A DNA stretch of 64,000 nt, from positions 186,001 to 250,000 of the forward strand of contig OZ287076.1 in the NCBI GenBank assembly GCA_965645245.1. The letters are read 5' to 3'. Each line of letters begins with the position of its first letter. The stretch's first letter is position 1. The notes below the pieces were generated by a model, which searched no databases, was not told where the DNA came from, and was given only the letters and a program-made list of their open reading frames with translations. The DNA comes from Massalongia carnosa. Taxonomy: Eukaryota. The translations under genes and the position numbers were made by a program. Below, in pieces: positions 1 through 19,479 of the stretch.

Positions 1-877
1 GACTTTAGTTCCCCAGAGCTTTTATTCTCCCAGGGCTCTCGTTTCCCTACTCTTTTGGTTTCCCGAGGGAATGAAAGCTCTGGGAGAATAAAAGCCCTGG
101 GAAAATAAAGTCCCTGAGGGGACAAAAGCCCTGGGGGAATAAAAGTCATAAGGAGACATAACTCGTGGGACCAACCTTCGTAGAATGAAATTCTTAAAAT
201 ACACACCAAAATTAAAGCAAAAATCTAGATTAATCTAATTGTACTCCACGCCTCTTTAATTACTGATTGCCTTTCCTTTTCACTCGCTTTTTCCAAGTCG
301 GTTCTTTTCTTCGCCAACCAGCCTACGGATGTCTTGGTCAGAAATGTCAACAGTGCTCTTGAAGCAGCTAAAGCGTCAAATCCCATCTATGAAGTATTCC
401 TGGGGACTTGTGTCGCGATCCGAATCTACGCCGACAAGACTGAATCCGCTTACATCACCAACCTGGCCGAACATCGATACCGCGAGACAACAGCGCGTGC
501 GAAAGGAGACGAAAAGAAGTATCTCGCTAAAGTCGTGGACGCACCTCATACTTCTTTCCATCATCGTCGATAAGGGATGCTCTTCCATTCCGAAAGTGAT
601 TTAGCACGATTAGGGTAATTATTAGTAGCAATAAATACGTCATACGATTTAAACCGAAAAGAGTTTAATGTGTTATTGGCAGTTGCATTACTAGCTTGTA
701 TGTCCCTAAGCATCTCGTTAAGCCTGGGCTTGACGTTTCAGCCTTATATGGATATCATTCAGCTGCGCAACAATAACAGCTTGACTGATGCTTTCTGTAC
801 CACTCATTTCCAAAGCCACCTCTGCACATTCCTACCAGGCTAGTTGTATAATTCGAAGAAAGCTAGGACCTTCTATC

Positions 878-3384
878 ATGCCAGATAAAGATTTATGCCT
901 ATTATCTCTTGATGGCGGTGGAGTGCGAGGGCTATCGTCACTCGCAATCCTCAAGCGACTGATGGAGATCATCAATCCGGATGCGCCGCTGAAGCCATGC
1001 GAGTATTTCGACATGATCGGAGGGACAAGTACCGGTGGATTGATTGCTATCATGCTAGGTCGTCTTGAGATGAATATCGATGAATGTATTGATGCGTATG
1101 TCGCATTGTTCGATCAAGTGTTTAAAAAAAAGCGGCATCGTGTCACAATAAACGGACACGTGCAGGGGAGATTCGACACGGAAGAGCTGGAACGGTCGAT
1201 TCGAGAAATCGTAAAGCGGAAGGAGAAGGCAGGGGAAAATGCTCTCCTCAAAGGATCAGAGAATCAGCAATGCAAGGTGTTAGTGCTTCGGAAGTTGCAT
1301 TTACACGTATAATTCTAGTGATACTAATGAAAGCTAGATTTGTATGCGCTCTGAGCAAAGAGACTGCCGACACAGTCCTTTTCACATCGTATCCTTCTCG
1401 AGGATCATCAGATATGTACCATAAGACACGAATTTGGGAGGCAGCTCGAGCCACATCTGCCGCATCATCCTTCTTTGATCCAGTTAAAATTGGCCAGTTT
1501 GAAGAAGAGTTTGTCGATGGGGCTGTGGGGGCTAACAATCCTGTCGCACATCTTTGGAACGAGGCCAAAAGTGTGTGGTCAGATGAAGCGCTTGAGGGAA
1601 ACATCAAATGCCTGATATCTATCGGTACCGGTGTTCCATCCTTGGATTCTTATGGCTCAAGCCTCTTCGAGATTGCAAAAACATTGAAAGACATTGCAAC
1701 AGAGACAGAAAAAACAGCGGAGTCTTTTCATCGAGCGCATTCCGATCTCGACAATGGGAATCGCTACTTTCGTTTCAATGTTTCTCATGGGCTTGAGAGT
1801 ATTGGACTCGAAGATGCAGCACAGAAGAACAAGATCATGGCCGCCACAACCCGCTATGTGGCTTTGGAAAGCGTGATGAAACAAATGAAGCTTTGTGGAA
1901 ATAATTTTTCAACACGAGAATGTGCGTCAATGTTTGCTTGATAATTTTTGAGTTACTAAATCCTTGAATAGACAGTGGTTCATATAAAGTGCCGTTCAGT
2001 TTGAAAGGCTTACCCCATGGACCCAAATTCATAGCTCGTGATCAGGAAATGAATGACCTTAAGAATACCCTTTTTCCCAAGCCAACTCGTGAGACTCGCC
2101 GGAAGGTGTTCGTTTTGCACGGACTGGGCGGCTCCGGCAAGACTCAGCTAGCAATCGAGTTCGCTCAAAGATCACAGAAGATTTTCAGTTCTATTTTTTG
2201 GCTAAACGGCGATAGTAAGGAAAGTGTACGTCAAAGTCTTGCACAGATTGCCCGGCAATTACCCCCAGATCAGATTCCGGATTCATGTAGAAAATTCTCT
2301 AAAACATCCCCTGAAGAGCTAGATGAAATCATTAGCAATATTCTTATTTGGTTCAGTCAACATGAAAACAATCAATGGCTTCTCATTTTCGATAATGTCG
2401 ATCGTGATAATTCCCCTGAGGTAAATGATCCTCAATCATATGATGTGGAAGATTTTTTCCGGAAGCCGATCATGGCGCTATTTTAATCACAAGCCGATTA
2501 CGACAGCTTCGACAACACGGGCAGGACCGGCAACTTGGAAGGATGAGCGATCTACAAGAAGCAGAAGTATTACGATGCAGGATAGGACGATCAGTTAAAG
2601 GTAATGAAATTCAAGCAACAGTCTTAATCCAATTTACTAAGCATTTTATAGGCCTTGATAGGATCGTCGAGAAAGTGGGTGGTCTCCCACTTGCACTTGC
2701 TCATGCAGGCTCCTATATCCACGGAACGACTACAAGTGTGAACGACTATATTCGATACTATGAAGAGACTTGGGAGAAGCTTCACAACAACAAAACGACC
2801 CGATTAAAAGATTATCCTCGTAGCATTTTATCTACGTACACCATTTGCTATGAATATGTGCAACGTAATGACGCGAGCGCTGCAAAATTGCTTAATCTGT
2901 TTGCATATCTCGATCATTCAGATTTATGGTTTTCTTTATTCACACCTGTACTTGACGAGAGCATTTTCTCAAAAGAGACATTACCACATCAACGGTCAAC
3001 ACAGTCAACAATCTAGGAATTTTGTATAAAAATCAAGGCAAGATGAACGAGGCCGAAGAGATGTATCTGCGGGCATTGACAGGATACGAAAAGGCCAGAG
3101 GTCCTAATCACACATCAACGCTCAACACAGTCAACAATCTAGGGCTTTTGTATGCAGATCAAGGCAAGATGAACGAGGCCGAAGAGATGTATCTGCGGGC
3201 ATTGACAGGATACGAAAAGGCCAGAGGTCCTGATCACACATCAACGCTCAACATAGTCAAAAAATCTAGGAAGTCTGTATGCAGATCAAGGCAAGATGAA
3301 CGAGGCCGAAGAGATGTATCTGCGGGGCTCAAGCGGCTTACCTGTGCCAGGTATGACAATTCTTGGCAGGACAAGGCTGGATGA
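878..3384 (+). pseudogene. Patatin-like phospholipase / NB-ARC / TPR NLR (fungal STAND immune receptor), frameshifted and internally deleted
   Basis: Patatin motifs LSLDGGGVRG, GTSTGG and FVDGA, then P-loop GLGGSGKT, Walker B LLIFDNVD and GGLPLAL, then 42-aa TPR repeats (QGKMNEAEEMYLRALTGYEKARGP.HTST). Introns at about 1278-1338, 1922-1971 and 2601-2651. A 1-nt frameshift near 2459 breaks DFF(P)EADHGAILITSR, there is an abrupt jump into the TPRs near 2985, and the third TPR is frameshifted. Confidence 0.9.
2985..3325 (+). repeat. About 2.7 near-identical 126-bp tandem units encoding TPR repeats
   Basis: ATCAAGGCAAGATGAACGAGGCCGAAGAGATGTATCTGCGGG recurs at about 126-nt spacing (near 3032, 3158, 3285). 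Confidence 0.9.
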
Positions 3385-4332
3385 CATATTCAAACGTTAA
3401 AATGAAATCAAATCAATACCGTCTGAAAGTTAGTTGAATCTTGCTAGCAGTGGTGGAATTAAAATTCTATCGTTCAGTTGAGAGGGAACTTGAAGGTAAG
3501 GGGCGCAGGGGCGCAAGGCGTACGGGGAAAGTTTCAAATTTCTTTGCATCTTGTCTCGCTGTGCCAAATCGGATCAAATAGGAATTGAAAGAGAGTAGGG
3601 ATCAAAAGGGAGTAGTGATTGAAAAGGGATAGGGACTAAAAAGCCCCAGTCATTTTAAAGCCTTGGGCATTTTTTCTGGCTGAAGATATCATGTTTCACA
3701 GGAGTTTAATATCGTTTTAATATTGCTACTATTGTACATAACGGTCTGGATAGTGGCCCCGAGGATAAAACCATTATCTCTGACTTCATGTGTGTTGCGC
3801 CGAGATGCTCTCCATCTATAACGCGGTACATGTATGATTTAGGCAGCCATGTTAGATGAATGTTAGATGGAGGCAGCTATCCTTCGTTAGAATACAGTAA
3901 TTGATAGGTAAGGTCAGCATACCCACGATTGCCCCCGAAGTGAGCGACCCAAGTCTGACCTGTCCATGCTGATGATCTGGTCCGTGATGATGAGTCTTTA
4001 GATAGAAGGGACATGGTACGTATACTCTAGGCTATTCCATTCGGTCGCTGTTGCAAATGGTACGGTAGCCATGATTTTGAAGACGGGATATTACGAGGGA
4101 GTAGAGGAGCCGAAATTAGGAGCTAGAGCGATACGAGAATTGATGCTGATGATGACGCAGCAGTCATAGGCTACAAGGAGCGAATAACCCATAAGAACCC
4201 GAGATGGTCATGAGACTTACCATTCGACGCATCGAAAACAGCAGAAGGGTATGGAATTAGTCAAGCTCGATGCCGAACCGAAACTTTTCTATGGGGAGGC
4301 AACCTATTATGGCCGCTCGTAAGGTGGTGACC

Positions 4333-5982
4333 TCAAAAGAAATTTATATAACCAATCTGCACGCAAAGGCCGAATGACAGTAAAGTGGGCGTCTTGTGAA
4401 CCAACTCCGCATAGTTCTGCAAGTGCATTGTGCTTGTCAAAACAACTTGACACCTTGGATGAGGGCATGCGATCGGATGACCGTCCTGATGATGACGAAG
4501 GTGTTTACAATGGAAGTGCTTTTTCAGATCGTAGCGGCTGGGGAAAGACTTCAGACGTGTCTCGGTGGGTAGCGCTACACAGCCGAGGCAAAAGATACAT
4601 TGAGTGGGTTCGCATTCAATCGGGATGGAGTCTGAAAGAGAGGCCGGATCGAGGACAGATGGTGGTGTCAGATGCCGTTCCTTGATGACCGACGCGGAAA
4701 GTTTTGAACGACCTGGACGCTTGCCTTCTTGCAAGCGACAAAGGGCTGTCAAAGCATTGATCGCTTCCACCCGCCGTTTGCACTCTTCCTCTGAGGATGA
4801 CGTCGCGAAGGTGAGGAGGGTATCGATGACCCGGACACGCTCCTCGAAGACGTAATTCTCTGTCTTCGCCGTCTCCAGTTCTTCCGACGGCAGTCCTTTC
4901 AGCTTTCGTTGAATGTCGATCACCGGCTGCTCCCTCTTATACCTCGCTTTGACCTCTTGTAAAAGAGCCTCCTCTACCGCCGTTATATGTTACGATGAGC
5001 TTGATACGCCTTTTGGTACTTATCGTATACTGATGTCCCCTTCATGCTCGCGATGGGTCCATGATAGTCTTTGATGAACTGGAACATTTTCTTTTGTCTC
5101 CGGCGAAGGAGTCTCATCTCTGGGTGACGATCGCCCTGGGCTTTTTGGGCGTCATTGAGCTTCCGAGGCCGTCGTCGATCAATCGTACGACTCATTCCAC
5201 TGGCGAGCCGTAGCAACGCATTTTGCGGCTTCAAACCACGATAGGCGGCCCCGGTATCACTTGTGATATACCTCGAGAGATAGATTTTTAAGAACACGGT
5301 GGAGTTGTGATGTTGCAAAATCAGATTCCGTTGCGATTCGCTAATGAAGCCTATGCAAGGGTCAGCGAAAAGCTCAAAAGAAGATTGACAGAGGTCGTGT
5401 TACACACTTGCTGTTGTCGAGAGCTTCGCTATTGCCGCGTTGAAAGATGTATGAACCGGTGGGAAGCTTCATGCCGGTGACGCTTCCAAGGGTTATCATC
5501 CGTGAGCGAAGAGTACTGTCAGGCAGAGCTTTGTCATCCGAAATTCGAACTCCGTTCACGGTGAATTCGGATCAGCGGAAGAGGACAACGTGTAGCATCG
5601 TTTCCTTAAGGGGACACGGCAGCTGTTTCTGTCCCGGGGGGATCCGGAGACGGAATAACTGTTCGGCAGAAATCAATTCGGCGGTGAAGGCCTGATCCAT
5701 AAAGATCAAAGTGAGTAGGTTCAGACGAGGACAAAGCAGCAGGCATGGTTCGTCAGGCTCGTCAGGAATCCTGAACTCATTTCTATGATACTTGTCAGTC
5801 GTTCAGCGAAACTGTCGTCTCGACGAAGAAAGCACAAAAGGGCAACATGGACGTTTCTTTATCGCCTAGATAGCCCTTCGTATTCTTGAATGCGATTTCA
5901 ATCAACCGTCGAAGCTCCCCTCCTTCGAGATCCGGAAGCAAGGTGATCTTAACATCTTTGTAGCACACATCCAAGAGGGTAG
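4333..5982 (-). pseudogene. DUF3435 tyrosine recombinase (Starship captain-like), 3' part
   Basis: Motifs LL.VCYKDVKITLLPD.EGG, EPCLLLCP, YIFQRGNSEALDNS (YxFRRG-like), ESQRNLILQHHNSTVFLKIYLSRYIT, GMSRTIDRRRPRKL, and a C-terminal QCIFCLG...KKHF...CPHPRC...HLQN finger. In-frame TGA near 5572 and frameshifts near 4980. Confidence 0.85.
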
Positions 5983-6389
5983 TGTTGAGAATTGAGCCGA
6001 GATGTCTGCTTATTAATAAGAGCACTAACCGAATGCGGATCAAGCACTAAGGGTTATTTCGGCCGTGGCAACACATCACTAATCATTCGAGATGTCATCC
6101 ATCTGCCAGCTAAGGGAGGCAAAACGGAATATATTGTTAGATGGTGAGGCTACCATTGGTTAGAGGGTCAGGCTACCATCAATATAGGCATCCATCGTGA
6201 GTCACACGGGTGTCTACCAGGCACCTATGGAGGTGCCTAACAGGCAGCTATGGGAAGCCTACAGCATTACTGCTGTGTGACTGCTATAAAAGCAGGTAGA
6301 TAGCCCACATAGATAATAACCCTCAATGACATGTATGCTTCTTATTTGCCCTACTTCCGTTTCATGATCAATAGCCTGGTGTTTCAACA
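5983..6389 (+). repeat. 5' LTR of Copia A (407 bp)
   Basis: Direct repeat of 10970-11399 with TG..CA ends. Confidence 0.95.
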
Positions 6390-6401
6390 GGTTATGAGCC
6401 C
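6390..6401 (+). promoter_or_regulatory. Primer-binding site GGTTATGAGCCC (Copia-type, internal iMet-tRNA fragment primer)
   Basis: Lies immediately after the 5' LTR and matches the copia-like GGTTATG(G/A)GCCC PBS. Confidence 0.85.
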
Positions 6402-6429
6402 GGTCAGCTATTAGAGAAATAAGAAGCCA

Positions 6430-9400
6430 TTGATATTCGACTCCACCCTAATTCGTTTCGTCCCAATGTCTTCATCAGCTGCGTCAACGTCGACCACCCC
6501 GCTGGGGTCCGGAAAAGGGCCGGAAGAAGAGTCGACGAGTGAGAATGTTGATGGCCAGTATAAGGCTGGTGTGGGATTAAAAGGTGAGATTAAGGTGACA
6601 AAACTGACACAGGATAACTTTCGTACCTGGATGAAGATCATGCGACTTAATCTAATCGGTAAGAAGTTGTGGGGTATCGTCGACGGTAAGACAGCACGCC
6701 CCAGCGATTCTAGACCGAATGATCAGACGTCTTGGGAGTTTGATAATGCAACGGTTATGACCTACATCATGACGTCTGTAGACGACGAGCAGTTGCAGCA
6801 CATCGTACTCTTGGACACCGCCAAGGAGCAGTGGGACACGTTGTATCGAATTCATCAGGACATAGGAAAAACACGGCTGGTTCCCCTACTGCGAAGACTG
6901 TCAGCGTATCGAGCTGGACCTTCACAGACGGTGGAACAGATCGCGTCGGAGCTTAGAAAGATAGCTTCAATCATAGGAGAAATCAGACTTGAGGAAAAGC
7001 CTTCGGATTTCTTTCTAGCTCGTACCCTTCTAGACTCGGTGGACGGCAGCGCGTATGCAATGGCCCGAGCCCTGTTGGAAGAGAAAGACGATTTGACCAT
7101 GTTGATGGTCATCGAAAAGTTCAAAGAAGTTGAACAGAAGAACAAGGACAATGAGGTAAACATTCACGAAGTTGCTAATAGGGCGTCATCCGATCGAAAG
7201 TTCAGTGGAAAATGCTACCATTGCGACAAAGTGGGGCATATAAAGACCAGCTGTTTCTTATGGTTGAAAACGGATGAGGGCCAGAAGCATCAAAAGGGGA
7301 GTGAGAATACTGATCATATGTCGAATAAAACCCGAGGTAAATCATCGAACGGGGGACGGGGCCGAAAGCCGAAGAAGTCGGAAGAGGCACGACTGACCCG
7401 AGAGGATGAAGATGACGCTCGATCCGAAGCCAGCGATGCTTCAGAGTACGCCAGGATGGCTGTTGAAGACGCTGAAGAATATATTCAGGCCGCCCAATTC
7501 GAAGCCCAGGAGGAATATGCCCTGGCCGCGACTGCACGAATGGGGGCTGGATCTGAAGCCCAGGCCGCTCGATTTGGCGCGATTGCGCAAACGGGGGCTG
7601 GCACTCCATCGAAGGAATGGATTATTGACTCCGGAGCGAGTCGGCACATGACTCCTGATAGGGGGTTATTCGTCAGCATGATGCTGATTAGGACGACAGT
7701 GAGGGTGGCCGATGGTACGGTCATTTTGTCAATTGGTAGAGGAGACGTCCTTGTACGGATGAGAAACGGGGAGAAGATACGACTGACTGAAGTGTTATTT
7801 GTCCCCGAACTCGATACCAACCTACTGTCGATACGAGCTCTTCAGGCGAAGGGAATTTCCGTCCGCTTCGGCCTGAATGGAGTCGAAATCACCCGCGGTG
7901 AGGCCTTATTGGCCACCGGAGTGTTGTCTGGATCGTCGTACCTATTGAGGCCAGCCAGAGAGGATGTGGCCCTGATTACTGAGGTAACGAAGGAGAAACA
8001 CTCACCGAACCCGGCTCGGGATGATTATTTGTTATGGCATGCGCGAATGGGGCATGTCAGTCTCAAAAGACTAGAGAAACTTCCATCATTGACCACCGGA
8101 ACGGGTGCGATCAAAGGAGTGGATGCAACCGCTCATTCTGATAAGTGCGTCACCTGCAAATATACCAAAATGACGAAGGTAATCAGTCGAATGCCGCCAT
8201 TGAAATCAGCGCGACGAGGAGAACGTACGTTTTCGGACTACTGGGGCCCGTACAAGGTAGCGAATCTTCAAGGATCGCAATATTTCCTGTCATTTGTCGA
8301 TGATTTTTCTCGTCGATCTGAGGTGTATTTTGGATCGAGGTTGACCCTGAAAGAAAACTTTCAACGATATAAAGCGAAGTTCGAAGTCGAGACTGGAGAG
8401 AAGCTAGGTCTAATTCGTACGGACAACGCAAAGGAATATCACGCTTTGGAAAAAGACCTTCTGAAAGAAGGCATTCAAATGGAGTTTACAGACCCGTACA
8501 CCCCTGAGCAAAACGGGGTCGCTGAGCGTCTGAATCGAACCCTAATGCAGATGGTTAGGGCTATGCAACTTTGGGCTGGATTGCCCAGGGAATTTTGGGG
8601 GGAGGCCTTGATGGTCGCGAATTATCTTCGGAATCGGCTCCCAACCAATACACACGGAGGGAAAATGACTCCATACGAGGCCTGGTACGGCCGAAGACCG
8701 GATCTGGGCCACTTACGAACCTATGGATGTTTGGTTCATGCCCGTATCCCCAGCGAAAGAAGAGACAAAATGGATGTCGTCTCATTTCAGGGAGTATTCG
8801 TCGGGTACCACTCATCAAAACAATATCGAATTTATAACCCCAAAACGAAGAAAATCGGATGGCATTCGAGCCTTGATTTTTTCGAGGACTGGCCTGGGGG
8901 ACCATTGTTAAACGTTCCTACCGAGTCAGGGACATGGGAAATTGACACAATTGACAGCGATTACGAGCCCGACAAGTATCTCGACAATCAACTCATAACC
9001 AACGAGGGGGGAGATGAGGTCATTGGTGATAACGGCCAAAACAAGAATTTATCAGTAGGGGCTGACCCCACATCTCAAATTGAAAATCCTGAAGAGATTA
9101 CATCGCCAGTGGGAGCTGATCCCGCCTCTTCAAATGAAGGAATACCCACGATTGAACTGAATGCTCAGTCAAACACAGGTATCCCTGCAACTATCGAAGG
9201 CAAATCGCCCAGAAAAAGGACTCCTACAACGACTGCATTCACCCAATCAAAGAGAGAGAGAAAGCCGTACGACAAATACGCATTCGACAATAATCAAGCT
9301 CTTCAAACAAATGACGATCATGATCCCACTTCGTACAGTGAGGCCGTCAACGGAAAAGACTGGCGAAAATGGAAAATAGCCATCAAAGAAGAACTCGATG

Positions 9401-10851
9401 CCCTACTGTCAAACGGAACATTTTTGGTGGTAAATCAGCCCTCGAATCGAGACCTGATCACGTCCAAATGGGTATTCAAGGTAAAACGTCATGCGAATGG
9501 AATGATTGATCGCTACAAAGCACGTCTGGTAGCCAGAGGATTTAGTCAGAAATACGGAATTGACTATAATGAAACGTTTGCCCCAACCCTGAGATGTGAG
9601 ACACTCAGAATTCTCTTTGGGATAGCCGCCGAACTGGATCTGGAAATTCAACAGGCCGATGTATCAAACGCGTACCTTATAGGTGAATTAACAGAGGAAA
9701 TATACATGGAGATACCTGAAGGACTTGAGGTCAAAGGACATGAGAAAGCAATTCTTCTAAAAAAGGGATTGTACGGCTTGAAGCAATCAGGGCGAATTTG
9801 GAATCAACGTTTCAAAAAATTCGTCATAAGCATCGGATTCAACGTTATTCCGGCCGACAATTGTGTCTTTTATCATCCTGTCAGCAAAGTTATTATAGCC
9901 ATCTATGTGGACGACATTTTGTATTTCGGACAACAAAACTCGGATATCAAAGCTGTAAAGATACTTATCAGCGAAGAGTTTAAGGTACGAAACATGGGGG
10001 AACCACGCTCAATTCTTGGTATACGCATCACCAGAGATAGAGCAAAAAGAACAATCGCCATGGATCAAACAGCCTACATTGAGAGGTTCCTTCGCAATTA
10101 TCAGATGGACCAGTGTCGGCCCGTTTCCACCCCTATTGAGGGACACTTGTCGTCTGCAAACGAAAAAGACGTTCGTACCAATCAGCTGGAATATCAACGA
10201 CGAATAGGAAGCTTAATGTATGCCATGACTGCAACCCGTCCTGACTTAGCCTACTGCGTGGGAAAAGTAAGTCAGCACAGTCATGATCCAACCGAATCAC
10301 ATCGCAGCGCTCTGGATCGAGTCTTTCGCTACCTGAAAGCCACGTCAAATTTGGGATTGATCTTTGACGGTAGCTCCGAAGTAATTGCATTTGCCGACTC
10401 CGATTATGCTAATGAAAAAGCTGACCGAAAGTCAACTCACGGAATGGTAATGAAAATTTTCGGGGGAGCGTGCATCTGGCGAAGTGCCAAACAGCGATCG
10501 ACGTCATCATCGAGTACCGAAGCCGAATACGTCTCCATGTGCGAAGCCGGAAAACAGCTCGTTTGGGCCAGCAGATTAATGAGTCAATTGCATCTGCGTC
10601 CCAACAAGGCCATTGACTTGAAGGGTGACAATCAGGGATGTTTAGCACTTATTAAAAATCCTAAACATCACTCTCGTACAAAACACATTGACGTTCAATA
10701 TCACTACATTCGGGAAATCGTCGACGATGGGTTAATTCGAATTTCCTACGTCCCCACGGCCGAAATGTTAGCTGACATATTCACCAAGCCTTTGCCACAG
10801 GCATCATTCGAACGGCTCCGGGCAAGCCTAGGGGTGAGGATAGTTAGCTAA
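6430..10851 (+). CDS. Copia Gag-Pol polyprotein (Gag, CCHC knuckle, protease, integrase, RT, RNase H), uninterrupted ORF
   Basis: CYHCDKVGHIKTSC; WIIDSGASRHM; LWHARMGH; PEQNGVAERLNR; YKARLVARGFSQ; IYVDDIL; FADSDYA; RTKHIDVQYH. The first ATG is probably at 6466. Confidence 0.95.
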   Translation: MIFDSTLIRFVPMSSSAASTSTTPLGSGKGPEEESTSENVDGQYKAGVGLKGEIKVTKLTQDNFRTWMKIMRLNLIGKKLWGIVDGKTARPSDSRPNDQTSWEFDNATVMTYIMTSVDDEQLQHIVLLDTAKEQWDTLYRIHQDIGKTRLVPLLRRLSAYRAGPSQTVEQIASELRKIASIIGEIRLEEKPSDFFLARTLLDSVDGSAYAMARALLEEKDDLTMLMVIEKFKEVEQKNKDNEVNIHEVANRASSDRKFSGKCYHCDKVGHIKTSCFLWLKTDEGQKHQKGSENTDHMSNKTRGKSSNGGRGRKPKKSEEARLTREDEDDARSEASDASEYARMAVEDAEEYIQAAQFEAQEEYALAATARMGAGSEAQAARFGAIAQTGAGTPSKEWIIDSGASRHMTPDRGLFVSMMLIRTTVRVADGTVILSIGRGDVLVRMRNGEKIRLTEVLFVPELDTNLLSIRALQAKGISVRFGLNGVEITRGEALLATGVLSGSSYLLRPAREDVALITEVTKEKHSPNPARDDYLLWHARMGHVSLKRLEKLPSLTTGTGAIKGVDATAHSDKCVTCKYTKMTKVISRMPPLKSARRGERTFSDYWGPYKVANLQGSQYFLSFVDDFSRRSEVYFGSRLTLKENFQRYKAKFEVETGEKLGLIRTDNAKEYHALEKDLLKEGIQMEFTDPYTPEQNGVAERLNRTLMQMVRAMQLWAGLPREFWGEALMVANYLRNRLPTNTHGGKMTPYEAWYGRRPDLGHLRTYGCLVHARIPSERRDKMDVVSFQGVFVGYHSSKQYRIYNPKTKKIGWHSSLDFFEDWPGGPLLNVPTESGTWEIDTIDSDYEPDKYLDNQLITNEGGDEVIGDNGQNKNLSVGADPTSQIENPEEITSPVGADPASSNEGIPTIELNAQSNTGIPATIEGKSPRKRTPTTTAFTQSKRERKPYDKYAFDNNQALQTNDDHDPTSYSEAVNGKDWRKWKIAIKEELDALLSNGTFLVVNQPSNRDLITSKWVFKVKRHANGMIDRYKARLVARGFSQKYGIDYNETFAPTLRCETLRILFGIAAELDLEIQQADVSNAYLIGELTEEIYMEIPEGLEVKGHEKAILLKKGLYGLKQSGRIWNQRFKKFVISIGFNVIPADNCVFYHPVSKVIIAIYVDDILYFGQQNSDIKAVKILISEEFKVRNMGEPRSILGIRITRDRAKRTIAMDQTAYIERFLRNYQMDQCRPVSTPIEGHLSSANEKDVRTNQLEYQRRIGSLMYAMTATRPDLAYCVGKVSQHSHDPTESHRSALDRVFRYLKATSNLGLIFDGSSEVIAFADSDYANEKADRKSTHGMVMKIFGGACIWRSAKQRSTSSSSTEAEYVSMCEAGKQLVWASRLMSQLHLRPNKAIDLKGDNQGCLALIKNPKHHSRTKHIDVQYHYIREIVDDGLIRISYVPTAEMLADIFTKPLPQASFERLRASLGVRIVS

Positions 10852-10969
10852 GGGGTTTGGACGTACATCGGCCGTTTGGCCCATGGCCCAGGGGACAGGC
10901 CCCGAGGGCGACACGCGATGGTTGGTACTGCGAGGGCATGAGGCCATCCAGACATTCTCGGAGTGGGAG

Positions 10970-11399
10970 TGTTGAGAATTGAGCCGAGATGTCTGCTTAT
11001 TAATAAGAGCACTAACCGAATGCGGATCAAGCACTAAGGGTTATTTCGGCCGTGGCAACACATCACTAATCATTCGAGATGTCATCCATCTGCCAGCTAA
11101 GGGAGGCAAAACGGAATATATTGTTAGATGGTGAGGCTACCATTGGTTAGAGGGTCAGGCTACCATCAATATAGGCATCCATCGTGAGTCACACGGGTGT
11201 CTACCAGGCACCTATGGAGGTGCCTAACAGGCAGCTATGGAGGTGCCTAACAGGCAGCTATGGGAAGCCTACAGCATTACTGCTGTGTGACTGCTATAAA
11301 AGCAGGTAGATAGCCCACATAGATAATAACCCTCAATGACATGTATGCTTCTTATTTGCCCTACTTCCGTTTCATGATCAATAGCCTGGTGTTTCAACA
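10970..11399 (+). repeat. 3' LTR of Copia A (430 bp)
   Basis: Follows the PPT and carries an extra copy of CTATGGAGGTGCCTAACAGGCAG. Confidence 0.95.
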
Positions 11400-12152
11400 G
11401 GTAGTAGGACGGTTGTCTGTGATTCCGGCTAGCTGCATGATCAAGGCTAGTTGTACACGGTACCGCTCGTGATCAAAGACGATCTCGACGGAGAGAAACA
11501 ATATCTTCAGGAGCTCGAACTCGTCCTCGGCCCGCATGATGAGCTTCTTCTTCTTCTTCTTCTCAGTCCTTAAACCATGCTTCAGAGCGAGCCGTTGTCT
11601 CGCCTAGTACTGGTTAATCAATAGAGGCGTAGAATGGGGCTCTCGTACCCCTTGCATCTGGCTTTTGATAAGCGGGTCGATCTCTAGACAGCCAGTCTCT
11701 TTCTTTCGTGTTTGCAGGATACTAGCCGCACTCAGCCGATTTTTTCTAATGGAGAGTAGCCAGTCGAAGAAGACGTAGAGGATGTTGATAGAGATCTCCC
11801 TGAGAGTCATGACGGGGTTCTTCCCAGTGAATTCGCAATATCTGTCAGCCTCGATCAGATTTCGCCAGTCCACGATAGTAGTAGTAGCATCTCCTTACCG
11901 ATACCAAAGGTTCTTAATCCAGCTCTGTAGATCCTCGCTGCTGTCCTTGTAAACTCGTTCAGGGAAACATAGAGTCGACGAGCGTGGACGATAGGTGATC
12001 GACGTGAAGGAGGGACGGCGAAAATGAAAGTGGGAGAATAAGAGGGTTGGAAAGGTGAAGATGAAGGGTAGAGGGACACGAAGAGAAAGGTCGTCAGAGA
12101 CGATGGGAACGGAGGGGAAGCTGAGCAGAACAGCCGATTCTGGAGGGAGCAC
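11400..12152 (-). pseudogene. DUF3435 tyrosine recombinase, 5' part (continuous with 4333-5982 once the Copia is removed)
   Basis: Spliced reading WIKNLWYR/YCEF..FFDWLL../FDHERYRVQLALIMQLAGITDNRPTT joins LLDVCYKD across the GGTAG target-site duplication. The start codon is uncertain. Confidence 0.8.
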
Positions 12153-13038
12153 GATGAAATAAATACCTAGTGTCGGACAAAGACCATGAGGACCAGCTAG
12201 GTGATGATGCTTGAGGCATGAAACGCTCGACGTGGTGAGGTGATGCGCAAGAGCGACCGGGGACGGGCAGGGCGGCGGGAAATATCCAGCAATATAGAAG
12301 CTGAAACAAATAATGTGAGGAGAGAAGCTGCAATTTATGATTTGAAAGTGGAGGACTGAGCGCCTTGAGGTCTACTTTCGCGTTAGCAAGTGCGTTCTAG
12401 ACGTGCGAACTAGCTAACTTATACTCGATATGCGTTTGAGAAGAGAATTTTGATATGTGGCTTTTAGATGGCAGACAGTCTTTAATTATATTATCTTATA
12501 AGTATTCCTCACAGTCATGAAGATGAGAGATGAACCACTGCATTTCATTTCAGGCTTGTTTTCTCTGCCCACAAAAAGGTCAGTAATTTTTTGATCTCGA
12601 AAATATAGGCACACATTAACTCACTTCTCAATGACTAATAGAGGCCATCTCTTCTATGTTTGCTTATAAATAACACACCAGGCTGTAACTAAATAACAAG
12701 GGTGTTTACATTGATATATGGCCTCGGTATAATCACACATGTTAAGATGAAAGGCAGCAGAAACGAGATAAAGAATCTAACAACCTGGCGAGAGATGGAA
12801 GTGCTTCTGAAGGAGAAAGAGGTTTAAATAGACTTTGCATATACGACGAAGAAAGCCTCTTTCTATATGCTTTCCGATTTCGTTCTCTAGACAAAGTCAT
12901 CATCCTGCGCCCCTAATCTCAACAGAGCAGAATAGATCAAAATTCATGGACTGGCTGATGTTATCGACCAACAGTATGTTCTTCGGATAAAGACCCCGGA
13001 GGTAACAATGCATACGAACTTCAAACACTACACCAATT

Positions 13039-14365
13039 GTGAATGCAATCAAACCGACTATTGAAATATGGCATCGAAGAATGGGCCACCTCGGCAACCG
13101 GAATGTTCTTAGACTTCCACAAATGGCTGAAGGAATTGACCTGAAAGGACGAGTCCCAGAAGAAATTTGTGGGTCATGCATGAAAGGACGACAGCAAAGA
13201 AAGCTGTCACGGACTCCTATGCCTCGTGCTACAAAGTTCCTGGAAGAGGTTCATAGTGATTTAGGAGGTCCATACCCGGCCTCCCGAAATGGATTGCAAT
13301 ATTACATATCCTTTAAAGATGACGCCACTGGGACATATCATGTTTATCCGATGCAACTGAAGAGTCAGGCCTTTGAGAAGACAAAGGAATATATCGAATG
13401 GACGTCTCAGGAGACTGGCATGCAGATGGGAGCACTTCATACCGATGGGGGAGGTGAATATAAAAGTGCAGCCTTCAAGATTATCTGAAGAAACATCACA
13501 TCAAATGGAGACCTAGTGCCCCATACACACTTGAGCAAAATGGAAAGGCGGAACGTCTGAATTATACTCTGATGAGTTCAGTACGGTCCATATTGTCTGC
13601 TATGAAATTATCGAAGGGCCTATGGCCTGAAATTATCAAAGCAGTGTGTTATCTGAAGAACAGAAGTCCTAACACAGACGAAGTGACTCCATACGAGAAA
13701 TTGAAAGACAGGAAGCTCAACCTCAGTCATCTGAGGGTGTTGGGTGCACGTGCTTGGTTTCATATTCCCAAAGAGAAGAGAAAGAAGCTGGATGAACGGT
13801 CCTGGCAGGGCATTCATGTTGGCTATGAAGGCATAAATTAGTACAGGATATATGACCCCTGTACCGGAAAGGTTCATGTTACAAGAGACGTAACTATTGA
13901 CGAAAAGAACCTCTTTGACCGAAAGGCTTTCAACCCGAAAGAGCTTGTTGACGACGAGTGGACCAGAAGGACGATGATCTATTTGGAAATCCAGACGACT
14001 ATGACGACGACGAGAAGGACGATGCATACACCCAATCTCGATTCAACAAACCTCAACTTCCTACACCGCCAAATAGTCCTTCAAACATGGGACATTCAGA
14101 CCAAATTCCTGTGGGAGCTTCCCAAAAAACATGGCCAGAAGGGGGAGGAAATTTCGAAGCCAATTATCATAGTTTTTATGATAGTCACGACGAAGTGACC
14201 CTTGACACCGACCATGACGCTCAGGAAGATCATAATTCGTCCACCATCTCATCTGACCATGTTCTATTGAGAAGATCCAAACGAGCACCCGTCAAACGTA
14301 CAAATTATCCTGATGAAATTATCTATGGTTTTGGTAAAATACCGAAGGGAATTGAAACCGGGAAC
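13039..14365 (+). mobile_element. Degenerate Copia fragment (GAG-pre-integrase and integrase)
   Basis: IWHRRMGHL, EVHSDLGGP, LHTDGGGEY, EQNGKAERLN, GIHVGYEG. Contains stops and frameshifts; no LTRs seen. Confidence 0.85.
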
Positions 14366-14369
14366 TATA

Positions 14370-17300
14370 GTATCATCGCTCGCCGCCAGGACAACAATCT
14401 GTATATCCTGAACATGTAGAACGTCTCTGAAGTCGCTCTCGCTCTCGCTGCAATTAATAGCGAGGCGATAAAAATATGGCACGCTCATTTAGGCCATCTT
14501 GGAAATCAAAACATTCTCAAGCTCGCTGGCATGTCAAAAGGAATGGAGCTCACCAAGCCCCCGCCACAAGACGTCTGTCCTCCGTGCGCCATCGCTTAGT
14601 TCCAAATACTCGCTTAGCCCCATTACGGGATTTCCCGGTGAAACGCCGAACCCGGTGACAACGCCGAATTTTAGAAAATTACTCCGCACTACCTTACCCT
14701 CTTCAACTATGAATAACACTACTATTACCGCCCCAATTGACCAAGCAATTGCTAATTTAGAATCGCAAGAACGACCAAATATACTTGCAACTGCTAAGAA
14801 ATTTGGCCTAGTCGAAAGTACTCTTCGGCGGCGATGGAAAGGCCAATCGATCTCCCGACGGGAGGCTTCATCCACACATAAGCAACGCCTCACAACGGTC
14901 CAAGAAGAGGCTCTAATCTCACAAATCAATCGATTAACCGACAGAGGAATACCTCCTACCCCTACAATTGTGCGCAATTTGGCAGAAGAAATGATCCAGT
15001 CGTCAGTAGGTAGGAACTGGGCGGGAGAATTCACTAAGCGAAATCAAGATAGACTTAAAAGTCTATATTTACGCAACATGGACAGTCTATGCATAAAGTC
15101 TGAGTATGCACCTAAATTCAAGCAATTCTATGATCAGGTCCGTAGTTTTGACAATATAACTGCCCCTATTTGCGTCGCATTTGTGCCTAATAGTCATCAT
15201 TTCTTCTAGTTGATCGCGGGGATCGAAAAATATAACATCACAGCAGATAACGTCTATAATTGGGACGAAAAGGGCTTTTTAATTGGCATGGCCTCTGCCG
15301 TAAAGCGATTAATGACTCTTGAAGCTCTAGAATCCGGGCGCATAACCCATGCGAGTCAAGATGGAAGTCGTGAATTCATCAGTCTACTGGCTTGCATATG
15401 CGCAAACGGTACCGCTTTACCACCCGCGCTGATCTATAGAGGCGATTCAAAGACACTTCAGGATATATGGTTAGAAGATTGGAGTGTAGATCAGCAAGCT
15501 TTCTTCGCGGTCTCCTCCAATGGATGGAGTTGTGACCTGCTTGGTCTAAACTAGCTTGAGCGTGTTTTTAAACGATGTACGAAGCATATGGGGCATAGAA
15601 GGCGGTTGCTGGTGGTGGATGGTCATTCTAGCCACGTCAATATGAAATTCATCAATAAATGCGATGAACTACGAATTCTATTGATGATTCTACCATCGCA
15701 TACTACGCACCGGTTGCAACCCCTAGATGTTTCATTGTTTGCCCCCCTGGCCCGGTATTACACGAATGGCCTCAATGATATGATGTTTAACTCATTGGGC
15801 ACAGTGAACATATCAAAAAGAGTCTTCTGGGGTGTTTTTTGGCCTGGCTGGCAGAAGGCCTTCAATGAAAAGAACATAATCTCTGGGTTTGAGAAGACAG
15901 GCATATGACCGTACAATCCAAACATCCTACTAATAAAATCACCAAATCGCCTTCACCAGAGGAGAAACCTAACGTCACACAAGCACCCAAGACACCTTTG
16001 ACGGGACGGGCGGTTCGTCGCATACAAAAAGCCTACGTAAAAGAGCCAAATAGAGTTTTGTTGTCCAAGATATTTGCTGCAAATAAGCGTCTCGCAGCTA
16101 ATCGTTCTATTGATCAACACGTAATTAGAGGTCTATGCGAGGCACTTAAAGAGGAAAAGAAACGACGAAAACGTGGTAAACGCCTGAATTTGCTAGGTGA
16201 AGAAGATTCTGGGCCTCACTTTTTCAGTCCGGGTAGGGTGGCAGCGGCCAGAGCCTATCAGGCTTCAAAAGATGACGAAAAGCCACGACGGCAACAGGAT
16301 CTCGCTGAAAAATGGGCACAGTTAGTTTTTAAAAAGTCGCTGAAGGAAAAAGAATGCAAGAACGGGCCCTAGTTGCTATAGAAAAAAACGATTGATCGAG
16401 GAGGCGAGGCAGGCTAAAGCGGTCGAAAAGCAGGCCCAAAACGAATTGAAAAACGCAGGTACTAAGCCTTCTGAATTATCGATGAGGTTGGAATCGACAT
16501 CTACAGGGCCAAAGCAAATGCCAAAGTGTCGAAGGCAGTCCCAGGAGCAAAGTGATGATGTCGAGGTGGTTGGTGGAGTGGAAATAATAATTTCTCGTAC
16601 ATCTAGGGGGAGAGAGGTACGAAAGTCAAATCATTTTGGCGAATAGAATTTTATTCTATACATCAAATTGGACACCTTCTATGTACATTTTACCAAAGCT
16701 TCAGTAAATTTAGAAATTTCGGCGTTCTCAGGGTTCGGCGTTTCACCGGGAAATCCCGTAGTTCTAGCTCAGCCCTGCAGGCTGCCATGACTGCTATAAG
16801 CAGTCACCTCCGTAGTAATTTCAACATTATGCCGTCAACTGTTTATTTAACACCATGTAGAACCACACTGGGCCCCCATCCAACCAGGCAAGCACCCGCT
16901 GGACTTAAGTCACAGCGATGTTCAAGGACCTTTCCCAGAAGCCTTGAATGGCGCCAAATATATGGTGACCTTTCTTTGCGATTTCGATAAACGGTCCTAC
17001 GTCACCTTACTGCGCGTCAAAAGCGGAGTCCTTCAAGCCTTTAAAAACTACAAGAAGCAAAATGAATATGGGGACAAACGAATTAAGCGCTTGCGATCGG
17101 ACTGTGGGGTGGGAACCTACCGTATCGGGAAATCCACCCATGAACTGGACAGCCGAGCGCCTAGGTCAAACGCTTCACAAGTTAGCCAGCACCATGCGAG
17201 AAGGCGCTAAACTCGACATCAAATATTGGGCTGAAATGGTTCTCACTGCCAACTACCTAAGAAATCGACAACCAACTGCGGGACGCTCCATCACCCCCTA

Positions 17301-18760
17301 CGAATCTCACACCGGCAGCCCACCAGAACTAGGACATCTAAGGATAATAGGACAGACTAGCTATACGCAAAATCGCAAGCCCTCCACCGGATGGAAGAAA
17401 TTATAGGAACGAGCCACCAAATGTACTTTAGTAGGATACGAAGGCGATCACATCTATCGAATGATAAATCCACGGGGCGCGGTCATGCGTTATTCCAATG
17501 TTCAGTGGATAGATAACAATCCCCAACTCCTCCTTCCTTATCATTCTCTCAAACTAAAAGAGCCCTACATGTTGGACAGTCAGGACCGCTCACAAGAAAG
17601 CAAAAAATTACCCATCATACGCACGCCCCTCATACGGACTTGGTCGACGCTCATGAATCCATAGAATCAATTCTCACTGGACCTCTCCCATCAAACGTTG
17701 GACAAGAGGCATTGGCAAACCCACGGCCCATTGAGCCTCGATCTCAGGCAGATATTCTCTCTAAGCACCCAAAACTTCGTGCCCCCTCGCCTGACCCACT
17801 AGCTCTTTTGGATCTTCTTGCTCGAGCCAATGACCCGGAGCCATACGAGCCTAAAACCTATAAACAGGCAGTAGACAGTCGGGAAGAAAAGGATTGGCGA
17901 AGGGCAATGCAGGAAGAAATTTACTCTATCAACGAAAATGATACCTGGATCCTCACCTCCCTGCCCCCGGACCGCAAAGCCCTGCGAGGCAAATGGGTTT
18001 ATAAAATCAAACGAGGCCCGGCTAACGAGATTCTTCGTTACAAGGCTCGATGGGTAGTCAGAGGCTTTGAGCAACGTGAAGGCATTGACTACAATGAGAC
18101 TTTTGCTTCAGTAGTGAAGCCAATGAGCTATAAAGCCATCTTCGCTATCGCTGCAGCCAATGACTGGGAAATTCACCAAATGGACGTAAAAACAGCCTTC
18201 TTGTACGGAAGGGTGGACGAGGAAATCTACGTGGAGCAACCAACCGGTCTGGGTGACGGGCCAACGAGAGTTTGCAAGTTGAAGAAAGCTCTTTATGGCC
18301 TGAAACAGTCGTCTAGAATCTGGTATGAAACGATCACTACTTTTTTCAAGTCTCATGACTTCGTTCCAGTCAACGCCGACCTTAGTGTTTTTGTTAAAGA
18401 AGGGGTTATCGTAGTCATTGATGTCGATGATTTAATCATCACTGGCGCTTCTTCTTCCGAGATACAACGTGTCAAGAAACTGCTGAGCGACGAGTTCTCG
18501 ATGGTTGATTTAGGCCCTATCAATTACTACCTGGGCATGACGATAACTCGGGATCGGGCTAACAGGATTCTTCGCCTTGGTCAGCAGGCCTATCTGGAAA
18601 AAGTACTACGCGACCATGGCATGTGGGACACTAACCCCGTGGCTACCCGATGGATGGGCGACTGGAGGCTGCACCAGAGGGCCATCAGGCCACAGATGAC
18701 TCTCGCCTCCGCTACCAATCAGCGGTGGGCTCTCTCATGTATGCTATGCTAGGCACCAGG
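14370..18760 (+). mobile_element. Second degenerate Copia relic (pre-integrase, integrase, RT), interrupted by a Fot1/pogo element and truncated before RNase H
   Basis: IWHAHLGHLGNQN..C..C at 14473-14595 resumes as HSDVQGPF..RLRSDCG at 16860-17400. The RT ORF 17640-18752 has YKARWVVRGFEQ, LYGLKQS and DVDD. Confidence 0.85.
14626..16758 (+). mobile_element. Fot1/pogo (Tc1-mariner superfamily) DNA transposon with inactivated DDE transposase
   Basis: TIRs CGGGATTTCCCGGTGAAACGCCGAACCC / GGGTTCGGCGTTTCACCGGGAAATCCCG with TA at 14624-14625 and 16759-16760. HTH, NWDEKGF, DGHSSH and LQPLDV motifs; intron 15138-15209; TGG-derived stops at 15552 and 15906. Confidence 0.95.
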
Positions 18761-19354
18761 CCTGCGAGTAGATTCGGGACAGACCTCTGGCAGACCCCTC
18801 ATAAATTTCTACTGCTTATTAGGACTAGCTTAAGCCTCCCTCACACTAAATTAACAGTCCATCTACTAATGCAACGTCTCCCCGCAAGCTTCATATACCT
18901 ACCTAGTTGATTATAACCCAGTCACTTGCAACATTACTTATTGCTGTAGCCAATTCAAACATCAAACGTAGCTAGCCTCTGATTATTTGATGAGGGGCAA
19001 TCATCTCATATACCCAACGTTTATCATCTTTTTGATTATATTCTTTTTCTCAGTCATGGCCTCCGCCTAACTTTCCCTAGATCAGAAAATTGGAAAGGCC
19101 AAGGCCCTTCTCCCTTCAGCCCATTGTCTCCCCCCTCAAGAGGGAGAAGGTTTCGCTAGCTGAGAGGAGGGAAAGGCTCGCCTTCAGGACTATGCTTTTA
19201 CCCAGGGGTTCGCGGTAGTCATAGAATCTTTTCAGAAAACACGGGGAGTCATGTTATTAGAATGCACACGTCACCATCGAAAAGAGAGAAACACCAGAAA
19301 ATTGGCTGAGACAGACCGCCAACGAAAGAGTACGAAAGTTTCGTTCAATAACTG

Positions 19355-19479
19355 CATCTCCATAACTGCCTATTAGGCACCTCCTATAGATGCCTGGCAG
19401 GCACCCGTGGGACTCACGATGGATGCCTATACTAGTGGTAGTCTGACCATCTAACCGATGGTAGCCTTATCATTTAACA
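19355..19479 (-). repeat. LTR fragment related to the internal portion of LTR A
   Basis: The reverse complement resembles 6136-6255 and terminates at ...CATTTAACA (TGTTARATG end). Confidence 0.75.

Follow-up and report, generated by a model that had tools for sequence, protein, structure and literature searches.

The movement of entire gene blocks within and between fungal genomes is, so far as is known, chiefly the work of Starships. The window analysed here, 64,000 nt from the lichen-type ascomycete Massalongia carnosa, contains a broken tyrosine-recombinase gene next to a decayed patatin-NLR gene, and raises the question of whether the two mark a copy of such an element, and of which kind.

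A captain-type recombinase gene

The preliminary description had seen a DUF3435-type recombinase at this place, and a search with the PF11917 profile bore this out. Six of the seven minus-strand pieces of the gene, hereafter the captain, matched collinearly over profile 2-418 (2-44, 44-98, 85-156, 161-215, 213-331 and 339-418 of 418), with E-values from 7e-6 to 2.5e-31; Pfam gave no match for the seventh, the 96-aa piece at the N-terminus. The full-length homolog P0017 matched PF11917 with an E-value of 9e-137, and the captain read-through aligned with residues 31-679 of P0017 in one blastp alignment (62% identity, 657 aa). The gene is laid out as follows.

4333-5977, minus strand: captain (DUF3435 recombinase) pseudogene, 3' part (PF11917 pieces; tblastn with P0017 residues 192-679; read-through alignment)
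5351-5405, minus strand: intron 4, 55 nt, GTGTAA..CATAG, conserved position (homolog residue about 364)
5783-5852, minus strand: intron 3, 70 nt, atypical GTCCAT donor, CATAG acceptor, conserved position (residue about 236)
11400-11972, minus strand: captain pseudogene, 5' coding part, from the N-terminal domain to the first catalytic Arg (tblastn; nhmmer alignment of the relatives' start region)
11604-11648, minus strand: intron 2, 45 nt, GTACGA..ACTAG, conserved position (residue about 128)
11842-11898, minus strand: intron 1, 57 nt, GTAAGG..CTGACAG, conserved position (residue about 55)
11973-12145, minus strand: pyrimidine-rich leader, homologous to the captain leader of relatives (nhmmer E 5.5e-10; blastn to loci L035, L036 and L039 at 75%)

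All four introns have GT..AG ends and lie at sites where intact relatives likewise shift frame; their positions are kept in L023, L035, L009 and L014. The gene start, first placed at about 12152, had to be moved, the ATG remnant being at 11970-11968.

In live relatives the recombinase is about 680 aa long, with an N-terminal domain, a DUF3435 catalytic domain carrying Arg, Lys, YxxR and Tyr, and a tail rich in Cys and His. The 3' part of the window gene contains most of the catalytic domain, a helical tail and two CxxC..HxxxH motifs. A putative C-terminal zinc finger, as first proposed, agrees with this CxxC...HxxxH pattern and with the names that homologs bear in their sources; Pfam zf-C2H2 was not significant (best E 0.59). 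A sequence profile search of the PDB with 12 homologs found no recombinase, giving nothing beyond weak zinc-finger-like matches (E 0.17 and 7.5) and some chance matches. The first catalytic Arg (Arg I) is retained in the window copy (NRP). The second box, first described as YxFxRG, is present, its exact form being YxFRRG in relatives and YIFQRG in this copy. We took the assignment of YxxR as a catalytic box from PMC11162782, which reports a YXXR motif in clades 1 and 3 of the Starship recombinases, and the YxFRRG box of the relatives agrees with it. Together with the position of the relatives' captains as first gene behind a sharp 5' end, this box supports, at the level of sequence, a DUF3435 recombinase of Starship superfamily type.

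Decay of the captain and insertion of a young Copia

Once the introns were spliced out, two in-frame stops (TGA 5574-5572, TAA 4985-4983) and one frameshift (4976-4975) were left. Of the independent stops and frameshifts noted earlier, these three are real, whereas at four other places the frame changes at an intron that intact relatives also have. The gene is thus evidence that conserved short introns account for most of what looks broken in such captain genes, so that a raw reading of ORFs exaggerates decay.

4975-4985, minus strand: TAA stop at 4985-4983 (Lys in relatives), then 1-nt deletion frameshift at 4976-4975 (alignments)
5440-5442, minus strand: CAA (Gln) replacing the Arg of the YxxR catalytic box (Arg in P0216 and in each of the 12 homologs aligned)
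5572-5574, minus strand: in-frame TGA stop, Arg in homologs (read-through against homologs)

The catalytic residues are thus not intact, YIFQ standing in the window copy against YxFR in all 12 aligned homologs. Furthermore, the ATG remnant no longer lies in frame, some 30 codons following it being lost; a gap of 8 codons relative to homologs lies between 11709 and 11708; one His of the second Cys/His motif is changed to Tyr; and the natural stop is gone, the homologs' stop position being TTA at 4383-4381, with the frame extending to a TGA at 4335-4333.

The gene is also split by a retrotransposon.

5978-5982, no strand: target-site duplication GGTAG, left copy (sequence)
5983-11399, plus strand: young, apparently intact Ty1/Copia retrotransposon, with LTRs at 5983-6389 and 10970-11399 and a polyprotein ORF at 6415-10851
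11400-11404, no strand: target-site duplication GGTAG, right copy (sequence)

In the 1,478-aa product of the ORF, Pfam recognised gag, pre-integrase, rve and RVT_2 domains. As in other Ty1/Copia elements, the LTRs begin with TG and end with CA, the target duplication is of 5 bp, and the domains run from gag through integrase to reverse transcriptase (RVT_2). The element is ordinary except for a 23-bp tandem duplication in its 3' LTR, the sole difference between the two LTRs, which have 0 substitutions over 407 aligned nt. It interrupts the minus-strand recombinase gene 2 codons past the first catalytic Arg; here the insertion reported at 5983-11399, its target duplication and the junction ...LAGITDNRPTT / LLDVCYKD..., which reads on the minus strand, were found again.

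Frameshift 4976-4975 is common to P0216 and P0249, 91%-identical proteins from other assemblies, and the TAA at 4985-4983 is private to the window copy. Because this frameshift is shared across assemblies, decay predates the insertion, as had been supposed, and the Copia, with its identical LTRs, is much younger than the decay of the captain. Judged from its sequence, this captain copy is dead: the lesions listed above, then a 5.4-kb insertion two codons beyond the first catalytic Arg, would have left it unable to function.

Repeat-induced point mutation (RIP) was ruled out as the cause of captain decay: RIP indices showed no sign of it in the captain, in the NLR or in the Copia elements, and a borderline value was obtained for a single stretch of 573 nt.

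A repeated unit with a candidate 5' end

The 5' region of the captain is part of a repeated unit that ends at about 12,934.

12146-12934, minus strand: upstream part of the repeated unit, ending at 12934/12935, where the element may have its 5' end (contig ends, X1 contig, composition)
12936-18763, plus strand: older Copia without its first ~2 kb (5' LTR, gag, protease), outside the putative element (tblastn with Copia polyproteins; Pfam)
about 14606-16856: pogo/Tc5 transposon nested in the older Copia (Pfam; contigs joining 14605 to 16857)

Contigs from runs X10, X1 and X12 end at about 12935. An X1 contig of 1,000 nt matches 12279-12934 and continues with 343 nt dissimilar to the window; the 5'-truncated older Copia starts where the captain repeat ends. 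The boundary lies ~964 bp upstream of the captain ATG, no gene intervening, and the stretch 12401-12934 is AT-rich. From every compared contig of four runs the window copy differs at 16 listed sites between 11652 and 12970, a divergence that also speaks for decay older than the young Copia. Relative to a single-copy stretch, summed contig depth over 11917-13050 was 25-43x in X9, 9-12x in X12 and 7-9x in X1, values that are not copy numbers; runs X2-X8 and X13, which held small shares of query words, are left out of this contig evidence.

An element start at 12.2-12.9 kb, with the element running leftward, had been proposed, and the repeat boundary at ~12,934 falls in this range, with the gene pointing left. 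That 12,934 is the true end of an element is our reading of this boundary, and may be correct. Of the relatives' 5' terminus, the outermost ~360 nt had no match in the window by nhmmer, which found only the leader adjacent to the ATG, so that 12146-12934, itself with no counterpart among the metagenome relatives, may be unrelated sequence joined to the unit later. By blastn against 77 metagenome loci, the window flanks had no DNA homology beyond coding sequence, save an 84-bp leader match and two TPR matches. Rfam gave 0 matches over the whole window, and hence no 5S rDNA or tRNA target nearby.

The missing ~360 nt would also be expected if a captain-bearing piece had been displaced by rearrangement or segmental duplication within a transposon nest, 12,934 then being a breakpoint and no unit having been inserted. 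The window is indeed a nest of Copia, Gypsy and pogo elements, the captain has lost its first ~30 codons, composition shifts at about 12,400, and one X10 contig ends at 12,422. However, the X1 contig, at ~7x single-copy depth, is unbroken over 12279-12934, and an X12 contig spans 12057-12483, which indicates that the sequence up to 12,934 belongs to a repeated family rather than to a private rearrangement. We therefore hold displacement to be improbable.

Captain-led relatives in lichen metagenomes

The architecture of the captain family was compared over the 77 metagenome loci. The relatives' captains lie 200-500 bp from a sharp 5' end, and the cargo downstream of them varies. Between unrelated copies, similarity begins sharply some 470-490 bp ahead of the ATG and reaches downstream for differing lengths. 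Loci L023 and L049 share a single block of 12,140 bp (98.3% identity) whose flanking sequences are unrelated at either end, and this relative is a complete 12.1-kb element in two contexts. Common blocks of 12.5 kb were found for L031/L034 and L035/L059, starting 306 and 192 bp before the ATG. Many pairs of relatives have only about 3.1 kb in common.

This last observation is what a captain-only, or 'solo', repeat would give, namely a unit of ~3-4 kb made up of the recombinase gene and short flanks, multiplied as a small DNA transposon, the patatin-NLR being a mere neighbour in a compartment rich in NLR genes and transposons. Solo captains are an acknowledged open category in PMC11162782. The captain 5' region is repeated, and many pairs of relatives are alike only from about -475 to +367/+476 around the gene. 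But a compact element would share one 3' end, and the downstream end-points of the relatives vary (+3, +367, +476, +741, >+1,500); moreover, the 12.1-12.5-kb blocks begin at the same 5' boundary, one of them with unrelated flanks on both sides. We consider a solo repeat possible but doubtful.

A domesticated host gene, encoding a DUF3435 and zinc-finger protein that died in place, would be consistent with the names of the full-length homologs in their sources, only 'C2H2-type domain-containing' or hypothetical. Against it, the captain recurs within its genome, lichen metagenomes contain dozens of diverged copies whose flanks are unrelated, and several family copies (P0216, P0217 and P0249) are independently broken; such an origin is highly implausible.

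Genes downstream of the relatives' captains are typical of Starships: TPR-NLRs, HET, HeLo, kinases, PNP_UDP and ankyrin. A convergent TPR-NLR followed the captain in 5 of the 18 loci scanned. In four of these five the NLR is one homologous module (87-93% DNA identity), so that the captain-NLR association does not amount to four independent cases.

The patatin-NLR neighbour

878-3340, plus strand: decayed patatin-NB-ARC-TPR NLR gene (Pfam Patatin, NB-ARC, TPR; tblastn with the 1,175-aa homolog P0097)

This gene, with two likely introns (1286-1338 and 1921-1976), has a frameshift at ~2455, a loss of ~100 residues at ~2989 and a further frameshift at ~3260; its TPR array is reduced to fewer than three repeats. 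It is convergent with the captain, which lies about 1 kb away, and nothing but this decayed NLR follows the captain up to the window edge.

The preliminary description made the patatin-NLR the cargo of the element; it is at most candidate cargo. The NLR is a pseudogene, and it is a different gene from the NLR module of the captain relatives (46% aa identity in NB-ARC, DNA matches only in the TPR region), a point that would also suit a solo captain. Furthermore, NACHT-Ank, a second patatin and a kinase (Pfam) lie to the right of the ~12,934 boundary; NLR and patatin genes being present on both sides, the adjacency could reflect the compartment, as a solo captain would again predict. The NLR may nevertheless have travelled with the captain.

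As defined in PMC9156397, a 'Starship-like region' is one in which DUF3435 is colocalised with DUF3723, FRE, PLP and/or NLR and target duplications are not identified. With its DUF3435 gene beside a patatin-NB-ARC-TPR gene, the region is a Starship-like region in the terms given there. Neither DUF3723 nor ferric reductase was found among 104 scanned window ORFs.

Discussion

We think it rather probable that we are dealing with the fossil copy of a Starship-superfamily transposon that had a tyrosine-recombinase captain at its head and cargo behind it. Its 5' end would be at ~12,934; from 11,970 the captain reads to the left as far as about 4,381, and the element would continue beyond the decayed patatin-NLR and out of the window. 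From established Starship biology, an intact enzyme would cut and rejoin the element ends, moving itself together with the downstream sequence. Of the Starship reading first put forward, the captain, the leftward orientation and the 5' repeat boundary stand; NLR cargo and giant size are conjectural. Neither direct nor inverted repeats were found, nor was a 3' end or an empty site, and the element, which would exit the window at position 1, was presumably large.

The locus resembles the Starships and Starship-like regions of Pezizomycotina (Gluck-Thaler et al. 2022, PMC9156397; Gluck-Thaler and Vogan 2024, PMC11162782) in its DUF3435 recombinase with a YxxR box and, as those elements are described there, in a captain that would be placed first behind a candidate 5' end and point inward, with PLP/NLR genes adjoining. 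Captains are often pseudogenes in these accounts, and the relatives of the window captain insert into AT-rich or transposon sequence, with variable downstream cargo. The locus differs in that no target duplications, empty site or 3' end was identified, the 3' end lying outside the window. Against a classical Starship, the genome has many repeats of the captain 5' region: PMC11162782 describes Starships as low-copy, whereas the depth here, a rough guide, was 7-43x in X9, X12 and X1. The one complete relative, at 12.1 kb, is also smaller than the smallest element of the 2024 survey, 15,020 bp (PMC11162782).

Closer comparisons are Tangerine of Xanthoria parietina (PMC13486527) and the Peltigera Starship-like elements (bioRxiv 10.64898/2026.06.16.732702), which, as reported, share a lichen-fungus host, are rich in other transposons, and have a captain accompanied by PLP, NLR or hardly any further genes. 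For many captains of these fungi no element can be defined. The Tangerine captain is 1,390 bp from the 5' end (PMC13486527), compared with about 964 bp between the window captain and its candidate 5' end. Tangerine-family captains are described as lacking a core-binding domain (truncated or absent; PMC13486527), whereas the window family keeps ~185 conserved residues before Arg I, a region that may be this domain. Reported counts are 1-14 captain-like genes per Peltigera genome (bioRxiv 10.64898/2026.06.16.732702) and, Tangerine captains not included, 16 tyrR genes in four Xanthoria genomes taken together (PMC13486527); in the window genome, one captain family alone appears many-fold repeated.

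Crypton DNA transposons, the outgroup of Starship recombinases in PMC11162782, likewise depend on a tyrosine recombinase alone for mobility, and about 3 kb is all that some pairs of relatives have in common. Unlike Cryptons, the window gene belongs to the Pfam family DUF3435, and in its relatives the captain is followed by additional genes, over as much as about 10 kb.

A more specific proposal, to which we lend little weight as a whole, is that the window holds a copy from a lichen-fungus lineage of ~12-kb captain-first cargo elements, unlike classical low-copy giant Starships and present in tens of copies per genome. Multiplication would have continued after the captain frameshift, dead copies then being moved in trans by a live one, and convergent TPR-type NLRs would have been picked up repeatedly, the module being exchanged between elements with far more diverged captains.

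Starships of lichen fungi, first described in 2026, are already published, and the window copy adds a member; most lichen captains are still without a defined element. Taken alone, the locus is a fairly ordinary finding that leaves existing knowledge unchanged, and it supplies a well-dissected example of a dead captain. The leads that it offers are the repeated captain family, the complete 12.1-kb relative, and the NLR module common to elements with diverged captains.

The captain gene and its Copia insertion

On the minus strand, the captain reading frame ...LAGITDNRPTT stops at 11400 and LLDVCYKD... picks up at 5977. Six of its seven pieces matched the Pfam profile PF11917 (DUF3435), collinearly over profile positions 2-418, so that the family assignment made in the preliminary description holds. 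Of 383 candidates from a public-protein search with a 138-aa captain piece, 95 matched at E<=1e-3. Lichen fungi (Teloschistes, Heterodermia, Lobaria, Gallowayella) supplied the top matches, with Dothideomycetes next; full-length homologs have about 600-715 aa. In tblastn, residues 31-679 of P0017, a Teloschistes protein of 679 aa, align to 11972-11400 and 5983-4384, and no second captain copy was found in the window with this query.

Two pairs of direct repeats (5978-6253 / 10965-11240 and 6209-6392 / 11219-11402) delimit the two LTRs of the intervening element. These align with 0 substitutions over 407 nt, and differ solely by 23 bp that are duplicated in tandem in the 3' LTR. The element is an apparently intact Ty1/Copia, inserted very recently. 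The protein junction, the target duplication and the LTR pair bear out the earlier claim that a Copia splits the recombinase.

Copia insertion in the captain gene
5978-5982 and 11400-11404: target duplication GGTAG, on both sides of the Copia
5983-6389 and 10970-11399: LTRs of the Copia (5983-11399)
6415-10851: Copia ORF, 1,478 aa, with Retrotran_gag_2, gag_pre-integrs, rve and RVT_2 domains

Introns, lesions and order of decay

The captain had also been described as carrying independent stops and frameshifts. The TGA, the TAA and a 1-nt deletion are real, but four other breaks in the frame are short introns bounded by GT..AG, with branch sites of the CTGAC type. In intact relatives at two captain-bearing loci, L023 and L035, the frame changes at all four positions (residues 55, 128, 236 and ~364); in L009 this is seen at residues 55 and 236, and in L014 close to 128 and 364. 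Once the introns, the Copia and one GGTAG are taken out, a continuous frame of 1,347 nt is obtained, and the read-through protein (X at breaks) aligns with P0017 residues 31-679 as a single blastp segment of 62% identity.

Introns and lesions of the captain gene (all minus strand)
11898-11842: intron, 57 nt
11648-11604: intron, 45 nt
5852-5783: intron, 70 nt, poor GTCCAT donor
5405-5351: intron, 55 nt
11970-11968: ATG, aligned with the relatives' ATG, then TTT CCC TGA; start region lesion, ~30 codons gone
Between 11709 and 11708: 8-codon gap
5574-5572: in-frame stop TGA
5442-5440: CAA (Gln), Arg in 12/12 aligned homologs
4985-4983: in-frame stop TAA
4976-4975: 1-nt deletion
4413-4411: Tyr in place of the final His in Cys/His motif 2
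4383-4381: natural stop lost (TTA)

Judged from sequence, the Arg replaced at 5442-5440 would be a member of the YxxR box; YXXR is reported to replace the canonical HXXR in Starship recombinases of clades 1 and 3 (PMC11162782).

In other public assemblies, the proteins P0216 and P0249 are 91% identical to the window captain and share its frameshifted tail (...HRNIKRRQRRLFYKRSKRG...; HRNI*RR*RRLFYKRSKRG in the window), and the frameshift at 4976-4975 therefore predates the split of the three copies. Only the window copy has the TAA stop and the Arg-to-Gln change; at the latter site P0216 reads YIFRRG. We also compared window 11350-28350 with contigs of 4 of 13 public sequencing runs (X1, X9, X10 and X12), and between 11652 and 12970, 16 listed sites set the window copy apart from every compared contig. 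Since the frameshift is old and shared, the 16 differences are private and the Copia LTRs are identical, the captain was dead long before the Copia arrived, as had been proposed. RIP indices gave no signature. P0216, P0249 and a third close relative, P0217, are each broken in their own way: P0217 is intact at 4976 and shifts further on, and P0249 has two shifts near the TGA site. The whole sub-family of the window copy looks dead.

A repeated unit ending at 12,934

For window 1-5982, 5 of the 13 listed runs contained roughly half of its sequence words. On the other side of the captain, a 2,700-nt contig over 20331-23030, with 0 differences from the window in X9 and X12, traces the window to the organism of these runs or to a near-identical one, and gave a single-copy yardstick. 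Summed contig depth at 11917-13050 was 7-43 times this yardstick, a ratio that is not a copy number and is read only as "repeated": the captain 5' region is repeated.

Depth of the single-copy yardstick (20331-23030), and summed contig depth at 11917-12483 and 12484-13050
X9: 868; 37,001; 21,438
X12: 463; 5,398; 4,302
X1: 27; 252; 201

At ~12935, contigs from three runs (X10, X1 and X12) stop, and a 1,000-nt X1 contig matches 12279-12934, then continues with 343 nt unlike the window. The repeated unit thus ends at 12,934, ~964 bp upstream of the captain ATG. On its right, this position adjoins a Copia without its first ~2 kb (polyprotein homology from residue ~540, at 13027-13066). An element start had been placed at 12.2-12.9 kb; the end of the repeated unit agrees with this, but as an insertion end 12,934 is a fit rather than proof. 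It is a candidate element end, and the captain element possibly inserted there into the older, truncated Copia. A pogo/Tc5 (DDE_1) transposon (14606-16856) is nested in this old Copia; pogo-free copies exist, since X10 and X1 contigs join 14605 directly to 16857.

Captain-first elements among relatives

A profile of 12 full-length homologs yielded 77 loci, mostly from lichen metagenomes; in locus selection, 302 pattern matches gave 99 confirmed and 80 kept. DNA similarity between the window and these loci covers the coding region only (<=76%), plus a leader of ~180 bp (nhmmer E 5.5e-10). Among the pairs listed, non-orthologous copies have a common sharp 5' boundary ~470-490 bp before the ATG, with conserved terminal sequence and unrelated, mostly AT-rich flanks beyond; downstream, similarity stops at varied points. 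L023 and L049 (also L050) share a single block of 12,140 bp (L023:9523-21662 and L049:9523-21662), 98.3% identical, and the sequence outside it is unrelated at either end. The block represents a complete captain-first element, seen in two contexts and including a DUF7924 gene. Blocks of 12.5 kb are common to L031/L034 (99.98%, from 306 bp before the ATG) and L035/L059 (90%, from 192 bp before the ATG). On a small scale, the relatives follow the Starship pattern, in which the 5' end is fixed and the cargo varies.

The NLR neighbour and candidate cargo

878-3340, plus strand: patatin-NB-ARC-TPR NLR, convergent with the captain

Compared with its 1,175-aa homolog P0097, this NLR has two intron-sized gaps, a frameshift at ~2455, ~100 residues missing at ~2989 and fewer than 3 TPR repeats versus ~10. 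Frameshift, residue loss and shortened array make it a pseudogene as well. Its patatin part (878-1920) has counterparts in distant lichen fungi (Pseudocyphellaria, Vezdaea) with 83-87% protein identity, and is closer to its homologs than the captain is to any named one.

We scanned 120 ORFs downstream of captains at 18 loci (from 168 listed ORFs of at least 140 aa, captain-upstream ones dropped). A convergent TPR-NLR occurs in 5 of the 18, within 3 kb in L005, L009, L019 and L046 and at ~7 kb in L024; at other loci the genes include kinases, HET, HeLo, OTT_1508 deaminase, ankyrin, SIR2, PNP_UDP and DUF7924. One homologous NB-ARC-TPR module accounts for four of the five NLRs (L009:5084-8508, L019:4217-5847, L046:13072-15814, L005:13192-13986). 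Its 87-93% DNA identity, despite far more diverged captains, suggests that the module may have been exchanged between elements. N-terminal domains differ (DUF676 in L009).

The window NLR is a separate gene, with 46% aa identity across NB-ARC, and NACHT-Ank, patatin and kinase genes (one each) lie beyond the boundary too, to the right of 12,934; the window NLR is therefore only candidate cargo. ORFs of 100 aa or more number 118 in the window, and the scan covered 104 of them; the other 14 were captain and first-Copia pieces scanned earlier, and overlapping ORFs of the two intact Copias.

Other features of the window
23187-28967, minus: second, different Copia, 1,569-aa open frame 23400-28106
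28368-28774, minus: solo LTR of the young Copia family, 3 substitutions over 407 nt
31460-33176, minus: NACHT-ankyrin NLR
38246-43193: Gypsy element
43501-45361: another pogo
47667-48821, plus: second patatin-like gene
50216-50817, plus: protein-kinase fragment
52462-52702: tandem array, alternating 14- and 17-nt units, 31-nt period
62749-63465, minus: MAGE-domain gene

The window is an NLR- and transposon-rich compartment. The second Copia is highly repeated in the compared runs, and its 192-nt terminal repeats are 100% identical; the solo LTR, with its own 5-bp duplication CAGTT, directly adjoins one of them (28776-28967).

Comparison with known Starships

DUF3435 genes colocalised with PLP/NLR, without target duplications, have been termed "Starship-like regions" (PMC9156397). 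Lichen-fungus Starships are already published: in Tangerine of Xanthoria (85-102 kb), which carries PLP and NLR, 1,390 bp separate the captain from the 5' end, a transfer of NLRs among lichen fungi has been proposed for this element, and sixteen further Xanthoria recombinase genes are given without boundaries (PMC13486527). Peltigera genomes are described with 1-14 captain-like genes, and with TE-dominated elements of 29-45 kb holding a captain and one other gene (bioRxiv 10.64898/2026.06.16.732702). The 2024 survey (PMC11162782) presents Starships as low-copy, from which the window captain differs by its repeated 5' region, and many captains as pseudogenes or possibly "solo"; its smallest element, 15,020 bp, exceeds the L023/L049 element.

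The preliminary observation is confirmed with the corrections made here, and its Starship interpretation is partly supported. The captain region is a dead, previously undescribed example of an already-known Starship kind, and the significance of the finding is modest.
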